DNA of 64,000 nt from Pseudovirgaria hyperparasitica (lineage: Eukaryota): the NCBI GenBank assembly GCA_010093815.1, contig ML996569.1. One strand, given 5' to 3'. The position numbers were made by a program, and so were the translations under genes. Under the pieces are notes generated by a model, which was not told where the DNA came from, did no database searches, and was given only the letters and a program-made list of their open reading frames with translations. Every line of letters begins with the position of its first letter. The stretch's first letter is position 1. Below are positions 56,327 to 64,000 of this stretch, piece after piece.

Positions 56327-57508
56327 TGTCTAAACGGTTAAATAGCTTCGACTCTGTCCCTAGAACTTAGCTATATATATAATTATAGAATATATTTAAT
56401 AACCTTAATTATATCTACTTTCTACTTATAATAGATTATAAGCCCGGCGCTTTACTATAAAAGCCTTAAAACACCTCTTTAATAATAAAAACTATTATAT
56501 TTTAATAAAAGTAAGTCCCTTCTCTAAAACTTAGTTATCTTATTAATCCTATTAAAGTTTTACTTTAATTCTACTACCTTATTAACTCTCGGCCTCTATA
56601 TTATTCTCTATACTATCCTTCTACCTCTTTTACCTTTACTACCTTTCTTATAAATATATAATAAATAGAAAGAGTTAGAATAAGAAACTATTAGTTCTAT
56701 ATAAAGAAAAGAGAAGGAACTTAAGGAACTTGTTAATAATAAATATATCTATTAACTTTAAACTTAACCTATCCTCTCTATCTAAGCTATCTTTAAGAGA
56801 AGAAAATTTCCCTAAGTAGAGATTAGCTTAGATAATTATATTTAAATATATATAATTATAGATAATAGTCTCTAGTAGAGTTATTAGACCCTTTAGTACT
56901 AGAGTTATAGATTTATATATAGATATAATAGATTAGAATATAAAGGATAATAAGGTAATAATTATATTACTCTTATTAATATATTAAGATCTTATTATAG
57001 GTCTTACTTTCTATAATATAGTAGTAGCTATATAGAGTTATCTATTATTACGTTTCGACCGTAATATAGATAATTCTTTAATATATCTATTTAGATTACT
57101 CGCTAACCTCTACTATAAAGATAGAGAAGATATCTATAAATATATTAATAATTTCTATTATATCTAGATGCGAATAGTAAAAAGATACGCTACTTTATCT
57201 TATATAGTTATAAAAGTAATACGCCTAATCTTTAAGTCTAAAGAGGTTAAGGGCTTATTCTTCCTTATCTTATTACCTAATACTATAGACTATATTATTA
57301 ATAATTTATTAACTTAAGATATATTATAATTTTAAGATATCGAGCTAAAGATACTTAATCTAGCTAAGAAATATAGTATTAAATCTAATACTACTAGCTA
57401 TAAGGTAAGCTATAAGGGTAAGTCCGGTTAGTCTTCTAAGTTAAAGAAGTCTAACTCCGCCTCTATCTCTATCTCTACCTCTAATACTAAATATATATAG
57501 TATAAGAA
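56327..57508 (+). mobile_element. RIP-degraded Ty1/Copia LTR retrotransposon 5' end (LTR end, PBS, gag); 5' boundary uncertain
   Basis: ATA-GATTATAAGCCC at 56431-56445 is the RIP-mutated form of the fungal Copia junction ACA-GGTTATGAGCCC. A gag (UBN2-like) frame at ~56940-57370 de-RIPs to AAAMWSHL..RFDR...LFR.L..L.YKDGED...FL.SLP. The Zn knuckle (C-T-W-C-K after de-RIP) is cut at 57508. Confidence 0.7.
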
Positions 57509-60500
57509 TGTTAGGGCTAACACTAGGATAGACTTAACTAGACTACTATAGTCTAGTACGGTCCGTGATAGGTGGACCTAGGTTAAGCTAGCTAGAATAA
57601 GCGAGACTACTATATAAGTAGGCTATATATACTTAATTCCTACTCTTTAGAAATTAACCTTATTAGGAGAGTAGACTACCCTTTTAAATATATTCCCGAA
57701 TCCTCCTATAATCTATTAGACTACTATCCTACGTCTATAATTCTTATATTTTAATTTCTCTTTATATAGCACGATAGTAGTTTATAGAAATAGCTCTAAC
57801 TACTCGTTATAATACTCGTGGTACCGCCTCTTATAGTAGACCTTCTCCTAACCTAAACGAGGAGAATAGTCTATCTATAACTACCCCTACTAATAACTAT
57901 ATCTTATAGACTATCGTACTAATAACTTACACGATATTCTATATAACTATAGAAGATATTATAGAATATAAGGATAGAGTCTATTATACTCTATCTCGGT
58001 CTAGTTTAAACTATACTAGACCTAATCTTAATACGAGGCTAGACCTTATTAATATTAATAAGTTAATCCGTTAGAATCGCCTAACATTAACTATACCTTA
58101 TAATAATATATATACTAGACTATACGAAGAGAGGTAACGATAGATTTAACTCGAGTAATAACTATATAAACTTAATAAAGCTTAAGAACGTACTACGAGA
58201 CTTAAAGCTATATTACACGCTTTAGTTCTAGTAATAACTAATCTATATTTATATAGACCTATACTAACTAAAACGATCTATTCTAGTCTACTACTATCCT
58301 AATTACCCCGACCTAAGAAACTACCTTACTTTAATAGTAAAAGTAGAAAGAGTTTCTACGTATAGGCTTACTAATATAGCCGATTCTTCTATCTATTTAT
58401 AAATAATAGTAATAAAATTAGATTCGCCTAGAACTACCTTAATCTAACGCCTTTAGAACGTTAGATAGTATACTAAATTAAATATCCTAAGGATATCTAT
58501 AACTAGGACACGTTCACTAAATTTCTCCTCTAATATTTTAGCGATAGGGCTAAATAACGCGACTAGACCTAGGGCTATATCTTTAAGACTCGATAATAAG
58601 ATAATTAATTACTATTATAACTCCTTAAATATCTTCGGCCCCTCTAGAGAGAAGCTAAAGAAGATTATATAATTTAATAGTATGATAACTTTAAACGGTC
58701 CCTCGCCCTAAATATAAAGGACCGTCTTAACCTTATAATAATAATCTCTATAGATCTCTAAGCTCTTATAAACCTTACGGAGCGATACTAGTATATAATA
58801 AATAATTAACGCCGTGCTAGTATACGACTATCTCTAATAATCTAATCTAACGTAAAATCGTCTAACTAAAACCGATTTAGTAATAGATCTTACGGGACGT
58901 TACGAGGCTATTACTATACCTTAAATTTAAAACCACGCGGATTATATTATAGATCTCCCTACTAATTAATATATTAAGATATAAGGACTAACTCGTATAA
59001 ATGACCTAAAGTTACTTACTATACCTATAGTAGAATAGACTATATAGTATCTAAGTACCGTTTAGGGAAGCTACTAAGTACTAATATAACTAACTAACTA
59101 GTTATATACTATAAGTACTAGTAGCTAGAATATATCGCGCCTAACTATCTAATATAGAATATAAAAAACTAATAGCCTACGAGAAACCCTCGCGACTTAT
59201 AGATATAACTATAATAGAGGGGTAATCTACTAAATAGTATATTAAACTATAGGCTAGACCTATCGAGGTCCCTCATAGATAATATTAGACTATAATACTT
59301 AATAGTAGATTAGCTACTAACGTTATGTTAATCTAATAAGCACGAGAACTTAACGCTAATATCTAAGCTCTAATAAGTACTATATTCTATAGTATTAACG
59401 GTCCTATTAAGTTATACGGTACCTATACTATTAAATATAGTATCTAGGATAGCGGAGGGAAATAGAAACTCTACTACTTAACCTTTATCGTAGTAGATAG
59501 TCCCTTTAATATAATCCTAGGTATACTATAGCTTAAGAAATATAACCTAAAACTAGACTTCCTTAAGAAGATAGCTAGCTAGTATATAAATCTATCTTAA
59601 TAGGAACTAGTATAGCTTATTAACGACGAATAATTCTAGAAAGATTACGAGAAGGTAATCTCTACTATCTATATACTCTTACTTACGTAAAATAGCGAGC
59701 TTAGTATTAAAGTAGACGAAAACCTACTATATTAGTATAAAATATACTAATATATTACGTTAGCGATTAATTCCTCTAAACTACCTTAATACTAATCTAC
59801 CGACCTTACTATTAATCTTAAAGACGGCTAGTAACCTCTATATAGACCTATCTACCCTCTTTTAGAACCTAAGTTATAAGCCCTTTAAGAATATATTAAA
59901 AAGAATCTTACGCGAGGATAGATTAGGCCTAGTATATCTCTAGCCGGAGCTCTAATTCTCTTTATAAAGAAGAAGGATAGGAGCCTCTATCTATATATTA
60001 ACTACTATAGCCTAAATAATATTACGCGAAAGAATCGTTATCTACTACCTCTTATCTCCGAGTCTATTAATAGACTAGAACGTATAAAGATCTTTACTAA
60101 GCTTAATCTATATAACGCCTACTATCGCCTTCGTATTAAGGAAGGTAATAAATAGAAAACGGCTTTTAGGACCTATTATAGATACTTTAAGTATACTATA
60201 GTCCCTTTTAGACTAACTAACGTGCTAGACACCTTCTAAGCGTATATTAATAACGCGCTAGTAGGCCTACTCGATACGATATATATCGTGTATCTAGATA
60301 ATATTCTTATCTTCTTAGATAACGAGGAGAAGTATATCTAGCACGTACGTATAGTTCTAGATAGGCTAGAAAAGTATAAGCTATATATTAAGCTATCTAA
60401 ATACGAGTTCTATTAGGACTATATTAACTTTCTTAGCTTTATTATTACTAATTAAGGTATAACTATAGAGAGAGATAGAGTTACTACTATTATAGACTAG

Positions 60501-63500
60501 CCTAAACTAAAATCCATTCGAGATATACGTGTCTTTATTAGCTTCGCTAACTACTACTAAAAATTTATTAAATACTTCTCCCGTTTAGCCGCACTACTTA
60601 ATATATATACTACTACTACCGACTTATCTATTACGGTCCGTAGTAGATAGAAATAGTATAATATTAAATTATAATCTATTAAATTAACTAAGGTTAAAAG
60701 AATATCCTTTAAGAAGATTAAAGAAGTATTTATAACCGCTCTATTACTAGTGTACTTCGATCTAACTAAACCTATTCACGTTAAAACTAATATATTAGAA
60801 TTTATAATCTCGGGTATACTCTCCTAGCCTAGACTAATAGAGTCTAAAAAGGTCTAATAGTATCTAGTTACGTTCTTCTTACGTAAGATAGCCGACGTGT
60901 TAGACACGTGTCTACTAGTTAATTATATATGTATATAGTAGTCGTATATAAGTAGTATACTCCACCCTTAAAGTAGTAGCTTTAAGATTCGGTCCTTTTA
61001 GTATAGTTAGTTAGTATATAGAGCCCGCCTCCTTATATAATCTTAAAGCTACTACGGGGTTATAGGTTTAACTCTCGGTCTAGTTAACCGTTATTAAATT
61101 TTATATGATTCCGTTTAGCTTACTATATTACGTGTACTTTATACACGTAACGGATAATATAGTAGTAACGTTACTACGGTAAGTTAGTATATCTAGTACT
61201 AGAGGCGGCATTACGAGTATTAATTAGGTGTATACATGATTCGTTTATACTAGGCCTATTATAGCTAGTTTAGTTTATCTTTTATAAGGTAGATACCCAC
61301 GACGCGTAAGGGTACGCGCCTTTAAAAAGGGGAGATATTATTAGACACGTGCCTGCTAGTTAATTATACATATATGTAGTAGTCATATATAAGTAGTGTG
61401 CTCCACCCTTGAAGTAGTAGCTTTAAGATTCGGTCCTTTTAGTATAGTTGGTTAGTGCGTAGAGCCCGCCTCCTTACACGACGTCGAGACTAGATATACT
61501 ATTTATAACTAAGAGCTACTAGTAATAGTAGAGTCGTTTAAGTAGTGGCGATATTATCTTAAAGGTACTATATATAATATTAAGTTACTAACTAATTACT
61601 ATAACTTAAAGGGGTTTATAAGCACGACGGTTTTAAATTATTAATAGGTTCGATAGGCTAAGTAGCTTATAAATTTCTACTTTATAATCTACTATTAACC
61701 TAGAAGTATAAACCTAGCTAATAGAATATTAAGAAGACCTAACTATAAAGAAGGCGCCTAGAATTATAGTAGCTATAGGGTCCTAGAGTAGCTATAGGCC
61801 TAACTCTTAAGGACGAGATTAGATAATAAGTTATCCGATAATTAGTAAGATGCTAACGCTAATACTAGTAATCGAATTTATAAGACTAAAGCCGGTAACT
61901 AAAGACGTAGTACTAAAGTCCCTAGCGAGCTATTTATTAGCGCTATTAGAGAGGGCGATAGTACCTAGCGTGTATATTAAGTAGACCTCGCCTAGTTAAT
62001 TATAGATCTATAAAAGATAGACCTAATAGTTTTAAAGTTATATAAAATATAGTAAGATAGGTTATTACGGACCGAAGTAGACTATAAGTAGATCTTTATA
62101 GACGGCTTACTCTACTACGATAGAAAGTACTATATACTAATAGATAACGCACGATTTACTATAGTTAGCCGATACTATAACGCTAACCTAGTAGAATATT
62201 TTAGATATATACGCACCCTAAGCTCGATTTATTAGTACTATTTTTAGGAAGATATATCTAAGTATGTTAAAGAATAGATAGCTACTTATCTAATTTATTA
62301 AAGAATAAAGGTACCTAGGTATAAGCCATATAGGAACTTATAGCCTCTACTAGTCCCCCTCTTTATATAGGAAGATATTACTATAGATTTTATAGTTAAC
62401 TTACCTCTAAGCGAGATACTTAGAATAAGTTATAATTTAATTCTTATTATTATAGATAGACTTATAAAGATATCTAGGTACGTCCCTATATAGAAGACGA
62501 TTATATTAAAAGAACTAGTATAAGTATTCTAGAATAAGATTATTAAGGTCTATAGTATACTAAAAAGGATCGTTATAGACTAAGGAAGTATATTCACGTC
62601 TAAATTCTAGATATTATTCTACGAAATGGCCGGTATAAATAGAAATATATTAATAGTATTCTATCTATAAATAGATAGTTAGATAGAGCGATAGAACTAA
62701 ACGCTCGAGGCCTACCTTCGTGCATTCTATAATTTTAAATAAGATAACTAGGCCTCTCTACTAAGTATAGTAGAATTCGCGTATAATAATAGTTATTATA
62801 GTATAATAGGTATTACGCCCTTCTAGGCGAACCTAGAACGTAGTCTAAGAATAGGTTTCAAACCTTACACGGTCTAGTTCGACCAAACGATAGATATTAA
62901 CATCCACGCGTAGGAACTAGTAATTAAAATCTTTAAAACCGCACGTAACTATCGCGTAATAATCTAGTAAGTAAATAAGTTATATATAAAGTACTATAAT
63001 AGATTAGTTAAAGATTAAGCGTATAAGAAGGGAGATAAAGTTCTCCTTAATATCCGTAATATATAAATATCGCGAGTAAATAAAAAGCTTAATTATAAAA
63101 TAGCTAGTCTCTTCCGAATTAAACGTTATATTAGTATAAGAGTCTACGAGCTCGACCTAGGAAATAATATAAAAGTCTATAACGTATTCCACGTCTTATT
63201 ACTTAAAAGGTTTTGATCTAATATATATAAACGTATGAACGTATAATTATACTCTATTATACCCTAAGATAGACTAGACGTATACGAAGTAGACTATATT
63301 ATTAAACATAGACTTAATAAGAATAGTATCTAAAAGTATTAAATCTATTAGAAGAACTATACCGAGGATAAGAATACCTAGAAACCTATAGTATATATCT
63401 TAAGTACCGCGATAGCTATATATAAATAGAGGTTATAGGATAACACGTTACTACCGTAAACCTAGCGCTATTAGGGCCGTCGTAAAAAGAAGAAGAATAC

Positions 63501-64000
63501 TATAGAAAACGAAGTATTAAATTACGAATCCTAAACGCATACTAGGAAAACTCTATAAGGTAGCCCTATAATTTAAGCGATATATAGTTACTAAACGCGA
63601 AGAAAATATAAATAACCGTTATAGATACGCGACGCGATATATTATAATAGAATAATATAGAGAAGTCTAGAATAGACTAATATAGACTATTATATATAAG
63701 AAGAATATAGAACTAAAAAACTATAAAGGTACCCTACTACGGAATTAAACTCGTAATATATAATATAAAAGGTTAGAGTACCCGAACTAATAACTACTAG
63801 GCTACTAGTTTAGGTACTCTAATATAATTTAGAAAGATAAACTAATTTATATATAATATCTATACTTAAGTAACTTAAAGGAAATTAGAACCTAAAATTT
63901 AATAGTTATAGAATAAATAAGAACGTATATAATATTATTAAGTTAAGAATTAAATTACTAGAAAACTAGTAGATAGGTATCTAAATAGTCTAAAAAGGAC
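57509..64000 (+). mobile_element. RIP-degraded Ty3/Gypsy chromovirus (5' LTR, gag, PR, RT, RH, IN, chromodomain); 3' LTR not in window
   Basis: Starts TGTTAG at 57509. gag ~58300-59172 with two knuckle relics. RT ~59800-60600 (IRPSISLAGALILFIKKKDRSL, YLDNILIF). RH with ELLVIVESFK*WRYYL. IN ~62100-62900 (EDITIDFIVNLP, EFAYNN). Chromodomain ~63280-63420 (YEVDYII...KNT*KP). TA-rich and CA/TG-depleted. Confidence 0.92.
60898..61478 (+). mobile_element. TRIM (terminal-repeat retrotransposon in miniature), 581 bp, inserted in the Gypsy RNase H region
   Basis: TG..CA ends; 140-bp direct repeats at 60898-61037 and 61339-61478; TSD CGACG at 60893-60897 and 61479-61483; PPT AAAAAGGGGAGA at 61324-61335. 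The host frame FFLRKIAD-VETRY is restored on removal. Confidence 0.92.

Follow-up and report, generated by a model that had tools for sequence, protein, structure and literature searches.

Most experimental work on self-priming concerns Tf1, a retrotransposon with long terminal repeats (LTRs), in which the first 11 bases pair with the primer-binding site and the RNase H cleavage falls between bases 11 and 12 (as described in PMC7175516). It is described as common to the Tf1/sushi elements and as needing a three-duplex "pretzel", i.e., a duplex of primer and binding site flanked by two duplexes between site-adjacent sequences and the downstream LTR (PMC10085805). Many fungal chromoviruses are placed in this group, where self-priming is the rule (PMC10085805, PMC6934838), and it has been predicted for 12% of surveyed plant elements (according to PMC6317226). 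A second class, the miniature terminal-repeat retrotransposons (TRIMs), is defined by a length below 1 kb, terminal repeats of 100-250 bp and a site complementary to a transfer RNA (tRNA) (definition in PMC6934838). The subject here is a 581-bp element at positions 60898-61478 of a 64,000-nucleotide (nt) stretch of Pseudovirgaria hyperparasitica DNA (assembly GCA_010093815.1, contig ML996569.1), the whole of which is called the window. It is probably a member of a multi-copy, TRIM-like family of non-coding LTR retrotransposons in this dothideomycete fungus, with self-priming of the Tf1/sushi type.

The closest described systems are Tf1 and Tf2 of Schizosaccharomyces pombe, Tj1, Tosmo1-3 and Tcry1, self-priming chromoviruses of the Tf1/sushi group, which likewise have a binding site just after the 5′ LTR, complementary to the LTR segment where the transcript presumably starts (as described in PMC7175516, PMC10085805 and PMC4600332). 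The descriptions of this group also share with the element a polypurine tract ahead of the 3′ LTR, LTRs ending in CA and a central duplex of primer and site around R/U5. The element differs in having neither gag nor pol, in LTRs of only 140 bp, in a duplex of 17 nt as against the 11 given for Tf1, and in a third "pretzel" duplex that is unsupported; its cleavage and priming are predicted from sequence. Maggy, Skippy, Cft-1, Boty, Grasshopper and Afut1, elements of filamentous fungi listed as self-priming in PMC6934838 (citing Lin and Levin 1997), likewise have ascomycete hosts and a self-priming predicted from sequence alone. The likeness to these elements is one of published description, not of sequence comparison. 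Unlike the 581-bp element, they are presumably full-length or defective coding elements.

With TRIMs as described (PMC6934838, PMC4112212) the element shares its length, its 140-bp LTRs, a polypurine tract, the lack of coding sequence, multiple copies and dependence on a helper, whereas its site complements its own LTR, in contrast to the tRNA type of the definition in PMC6934838. Nine TRIMs, two of them Gypsy-related, are reported from C. heterostrophus in PMC4112212, a paper whose text contains neither 'PBS' nor 'primer binding'; a paper on bivalve TRIMs raises self-priming, where it treats it, as a possibility only. To the original prediction, made from the DNA letters, no self-priming TRIM was known to have been described, and none was found in a full-text search of open-access papers and bioRxiv. 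Both ingredients are known, and their combination is in no paper found. The biological surprise is limited: in the Tf1/sushi group self-priming is the norm, and a derivative that arose by deletion from a self-priming chromovirus should therefore retain the parental signal. The interpretation offered by the original prediction is supported, each part that could be tested having turned out favourably.

The 581-bp element and its probable priming signal

The LTR element predicted at 60898-61478 is confirmed as a complete one. Two direct repeats of 136 nt (60900-61035 and 61341-61476, 90% identical) can be extended to TG..CA ends, giving LTRs of 140 nt each (60898-61037 and 61339-61478), outside which lies a CGACG target-site duplication that the prediction had not mentioned. 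The direct TG..CA repeats, the 5-bp target duplication together with an empty site (described below) and the polypurine tract by the 3′ LTR are those of an LTR retrotransposon. The two LTRs differ at 15 of 140 positions, and all 15 differences are transitions in CpA/TpG<->TpA contexts, as left by repeat-induced point mutation (RIP), so that the divergence is RIP damage and uninformative on age. The parts of the element are as follows.

60893-60897, + strand: target-site duplication, left copy CGACG (sequence reading; empty site in paralogues)
60898-61037, + strand: 5′ LTR, 140 bp, TG..TA (the final CA now TA through a RIP-type transition)
60945-60952, + strand: TATA-like box TATATAAG, presumed U3 promoter (sequence reading)
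60973-60989, + strand: candidate self-primer, presumed 5′ end of the transcript and start of R (fully complementary to the primer-binding site)
60990-61037, + strand: remainder of R/U5, in which folding gives a weak hairpin (CUUU/AGAG, closed by CGG/CCG, plus an inner stem)
61039-61055, + strand: primer-binding site, 17 nt, not beginning with TGG (complementary to the LTR)
61056-61323, + strand: non-coding internal region (searches for open reading frames, Pol and Rfam families)
61303-61318, + strand: 6-bp hairpin before the polypurine tract, probably incidental (from folding)
61324-61338, + strand: polypurine tract AAAAAGGGGAGA (the tract itself 61324-61335) plus 3 nt to the 3′ LTR
61339-61478, + strand: 3′ LTR, 140 bp, TA..CA (the initial TG now TA through a RIP-type transition), with a second primer segment at 61414-61430
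61479-61483, + strand: target-site duplication, right copy CGACG (sequence reading)

The predicted absence of coding sequence holds: the longest open reading frame beginning with ATG is 27 aa, tblastn against the element with 38 of 91 chromovirus Pol proteins reached E 0.025 at best, and Rfam at E up to 10 gave two chance-level matches only, both outside the element, and no tRNA-like match.

As had been predicted, and as the repeat search recovered, the 17 nt of 61039-61055 match the reverse complement of 60973-60989 exactly (and also that of 61414-61430 in the 3′ LTR), with the single base T61038 between the end of the 5′ LTR and the site. In 5000 shuffles of the LTR, the longest reverse-complement match between the LTR and the following 25 nt was at most 11 nt in every case; none of 2277 native windows of 140 + 25 nt from the same AT-rich block exceeded 12 nt. 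The 17/17 match of the site to its own LTR is far beyond chance. The primer segment of the LTR starts 28 nt after the first base of TATATAAG (the prediction had given about 25 nt from the box near 60945), and a TATA-directed fungal start would plausibly fall near 60973.

No TGG-initiated tRNA site, of which the prediction had seen none, is present at the LTR border of the window copy. A relative from a second sample (described below), less mutated by RIP, has no listed difference at 61037-61060; therefore the missing TGG is not a RIP artefact. This bears on the explanation that a tRNA or tRNA fragment primes the element and that the LTR match is incidental or serves another purpose. Half-tRNA and partial-tRNA sites are reported for other LTR elements (PMC6317226), and a gene scan found 0 tRNA genes in the window. 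Against this stand the lack of TGG at or near the LTR end, including one that RIP might have erased, the extent of the match to the element's own LTR and the lack of any tRNA-like Rfam match, which together make tRNA priming very improbable.

Neither the primer arm nor the binding-site arm holds a CpA or TpG, so that RIP had few targets in them. The absence of these dinucleotides from the 17-mer was considered as a sign of selection and rejected, the rough chance estimate being about 1 in 10. Scans of metagenomes with the binding site plus 4 nt, and with a pattern of primer, gap and site, gave 0 matches each.

Insertion into a chromovirus, and other copies

The + strand around the element is a stop-riddled Ty3/gypsy Pol. 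In a tblastn search with P0022 (a chromovirus Pol of 1240 aa), residues 215-588 end at 60896 and residue 588 resumes at 61480, and deleting 60898-61483 restores the reading frame of the host Pol. The same strain is represented by two sequencing runs, X1 and X2, containing 0.74 and 0.59 of sampled words, respectively. A contig joint in X1/X2 passes from 60892 to 61479 and skips 586 nt (581 + 5), i.e., it is the empty site in a paralogous copy of the host family; another contig passes from 60879 to 61487 with 21 replaced letters (18 + 3) and marks this empty site in a paralogue that has diverged further. The 581-bp unit was inserted precisely into the RNase H region of the chromovirus with a 5-bp duplication, and element and chromovirus were both mutated by RIP after the insertion.

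Within the window, BLAST of the element found only itself, other matches being 31 nt or shorter with E 0.03 or worse; a set of short colinear matches at 61992-62168 was judged to be chance, lying inside the integrase coding region of the host. The runs of the same strain hold many related pieces. Contig pieces matching 60400-61980 at 80% likeness or more (range 80-99%, host and element together) number 4699 in X1 and 1778 in X2, where contig depth does not equal copy number. In X1, 118 of 120 variable places are transitions. The internal region is tiled by non-identical pieces from the same genome (61082-61187, 61162-61269, 61244-61341, 61198-61306 and 61264-61369), the alternative letter at single internal sites occurs in up to 27 contigs, and the LTR end leads into differing flanks in eight contigs (agreement 0.52).

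Runs X3 and X4 come from a second sample under the same species label. One contig of this sample spans 61037-61396, differing at 43 letters and having 16 gaps. Among the X3 pieces as a whole, 33 variable places have T/A in the window against C/G, and 12 the opposite; because of this excess, the relative in the second sample is taken to be less mutated by RIP. In its internal copy, the first of the listed differences (37 of 43 listed in X3, 35 of 37 in X4) falls at 61061, and the binding site is very probably unchanged. The copy has several small insertions where the polypurine tract meets the LTR. A further contig, found in X3/X4, has a 134-nt match to 61346-61479 within unlike flanks of normal GC (guanine plus cytosine) content; together with its loose-end letters, the match makes up a solo LTR of 140 bp, with 14 differences, a TG start less mutated than that of the window copy and CTTTT on both sides. 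To judge from the CTTTT duplication, this solo LTR is an independent insertion, and the element family reads as a multi-copy one with independent insertions.

The most serious competing explanation is that of a dead-end derivative: an autonomous element lost its interior after insertion, and the related contigs are autonomous relatives or duplicated chromovirus surroundings. A target duplication alone cannot separate an internal deletion from the insertion of a TRIM, contig depth gives no copy number, and loose ends of X1/X2 contigs at 61246 and 61256 could mark the divergence of a longer relative. However, non-identical contigs from the same genome bridge every internal part, and a differently mutated copy in the second sample holds the whole internal region joined to the LTR start. 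In addition, paralogues of the host family occur without the insertion, so that the copies of the element are not simple duplicates of this locus. A dead-end derivative is on this evidence unlikely, and that the element is not the product of a single-copy deletion is borne out by the variant contigs, the second-sample copy and the solo LTR alike.

The loose ends are those of one X2 contig, which enters at 61246, and of six X1 contigs, all of which part from the window sequence after 61256 and continue in an identical string of 11 letters. The stretch 61246-61256 could be a hypervariable spot, or the place where a longer, possibly coding relative diverges.

The prediction had also placed a polypurine tract and a short hairpin before the 3′ LTR. 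Both are present, the hairpin having a 6-bp stem (61303-08/61313-18), a 4-nt loop and -7.5 kcal/mol, but it is not conserved: G61304A and T61313C break 2 of the 6 pairs in the second-sample copy, and it was rejected as a functional signal. At 61313, 22 contigs of run X1, which account for most of the depth, read C, and the pair in the window depends on a RIP-type C-to-T change.

RNA fold and proposed mechanism

Folded as RNA, 60973-61075 has a minimum-energy structure of -33.7 kcal/mol, compared with -21.9 +/- 3.1 for shuffles (z -3.75), and 0 of 200 shuffles folded as well. The minimum-energy fold holds the full 17-bp stem, lengthened by CGG/CCG, round an imperfect U5 hairpin. In the folding model, the central duplex is the only one clearly supported among the three duplexes of the Tf1 fold; the element resembles a self-primer in layout, and the full Tf1 fold is not demonstrated.

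As the central duplex is the only supported part of that fold, the duplex of LTR and leader might instead serve packaging or dimerisation, attenuation or the production of small RNAs from the hairpin, the primer being something not yet recognised; some fungal and plant chromoviruses are described as being without a recognisable primer site (PMC2864245, on SM-Tcn1). Yet the duplex lies at the exact position of a binding site, one base past the LTR, its partner lies where a TATA-directed transcript would begin, and such a layout is what defines self-priming elements in the published descriptions (PMC4600332, PMC10085805). Such another role, in place of priming, is very unlikely.

In the preferred reading, that of a self-priming TRIM, RNA polymerase II would start at or just after 60973, about 28 nt past the start of the TATA box, and the first approximately 17 nt of the transcript would loop back across R/U5 to pair with the 17-nt site. 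A helper reverse transcriptase would then cut the duplex with its RNase H and free the 5′ end of the RNA as a primer, as in Tf1 of S. pombe; the freed primer would be extended into minus-strand DNA, and the polypurine tract would prime the plus strand. In each daughter element the binding site would be re-copied from the primer, whereby exact complementarity would be kept. Gag, protease, reverse transcriptase/RNase H and integrase would be supplied in trans by a self-priming Tf1/sushi chromovirus.

Several points weigh against this reading. The U5 hairpin is weak (-5.4 kcal/mol when folded alone), and the third "pretzel" duplex, in which U5 would pair with the sequence after the site, has -13.4 kcal/mol, as against -12.4 +/- 3.4 for shuffles, 34% of which equal it. 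The transcript start near 60973 is presumed from the position of the TATA box, no RNA run being among the sequencing runs listed for the stretch, and the site is read as non-tRNA from its letters. The internal copy of the second sample is preceded by 9 letters unlike the LTR end. A search of the window revealed no helper sharing the LTR or binding site; the host chromovirus shows no LTR likeness to the element there, by BLAST or local alignment, and its own LTRs and binding site were not located in the window.

The searches behind the last of these points gave the following. Alignment of the element LTR with the rest of the AT-rich block scored 50 and 37, compared with 38.7 +/- 4.7 (maximum 52) for shuffles. 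For LTRs of the host chromovirus, BLAST and RIP-collapsed BLAST were unspecific and transition-tolerant alignments stayed within the shuffles (85 vs 73.7 +/- 9.5; 53 vs 49.7 +/- 5.3); for its binding site, inverted-repeat scans gave chance-level matches of 10-13 nt only.

With regard to the 9 letters, they adjoin adapter-like letters and a restriction site; the second-sample internal copy could be rearranged or have a variant LTR end.

A further proposal, which must be considered doubtful, is that the element is a natural minimal substrate of the Tf1 type, with all cis needs in about 0.6 kb, and that its small size and CpA/TpG-free primer and site keep the family functional despite RIP. Two observations are cited for survival of RIP, i.e., the low RIP load of the element relative to its block and the little-mutated solo LTR in GC-normal DNA of the second sample. 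If the proposal were true, about 0.6 kb would hold every signal for packaging, strand transfers, integration and a self-priming whose 17-nt primer is unusually long, and the family would persist in a RIP-proficient genome that destroyed its larger relatives.

Given that experiments on self-priming have centred on Tf1, a naturally selected cis-only element of 0.6 kb would define the minimal RNA needed, and it would serve as a compact reporter for mutation tests of primer and site in a helper-dependent assay. Searches for TRIMs that insist on a tRNA-complementary site could miss or mislabel such fungal elements.

The host chromovirus and the AT-rich block

The chromovirus that received the element occupies two parts of the window.

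59769-60896, + strand: host chromovirus, left part, RIP-degraded Pol with reverse transcriptase and the start of RNase H (RVT_1; tblastn with P0022)
61480-63447, + strand: host chromovirus, right part, with the rest of RNase H, integrase and an SH3 domain of the Tf2-1 type (SH3_Tf2-1; tblastn with P0022)

RVT_1 matches at about 59997-60446 (E 7e-14) and SH3_Tf2-1 at 63031-63213 (E 2.5e-9); RNase H-like models flank the element on both sides, both below the curated cut-offs of Pfam, and the domain search of the - strand round the element gave no match. Among the best 10 of 91 relatives of the host Pol, 8 have the chromodomain PF00385, and the matches include fish and frog proteins as well as 'Tf2' names. 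These relatives would fit the Tf1/sushi ("fungi/vertebrates") group, as judged by matches and not by phylogeny. By the contigs of X1 and X2, the host family is a highly repeated one in this genome. An 11-nt string that includes the TATA box of the element (60945-60955) recurs at 57612-57622, upstream of the coding region of the host chromovirus; this may be AT-rich chance or a shared promoter motif.

Two parts of the window can be distinguished by their dinucleotide ratios.

56400-64000, AT-rich block: TpA/ApT 1.70, (CpA+TpG)/(ApC+GpT) 0.10
1-56000, gene-rich part: TpA/ApT 0.76, (CpA+TpG)/(ApC+GpT) 1.21

By these ratios, the AT-rich block bears the marks of RIP. An open reading frame of the gene-rich part matches, at 100% identity over 98% of its length, a protein assigned to P. 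hyperparasitica. The second ratio is 0.29 for the element (60898-61478) and 0.62 for its 3′ LTR, compared with 0.10 for the block, i.e., the 581-bp element is less RIP-mutated than the chromovirus around it. Either it was inserted after part of the RIP damage had occurred, or short repeats are attacked less.

An isochore-like alternation of gene-rich and AT-rich parts is known from some Dothideomycetes. In the window, the GC content is 0.44-0.55 up to about 56 kb and 0.28-0.33 thereafter, with an abrupt switch at about 56370 from the GC-normal, gene-bearing part (0.49) to the AT-rich RIP block (0.29).

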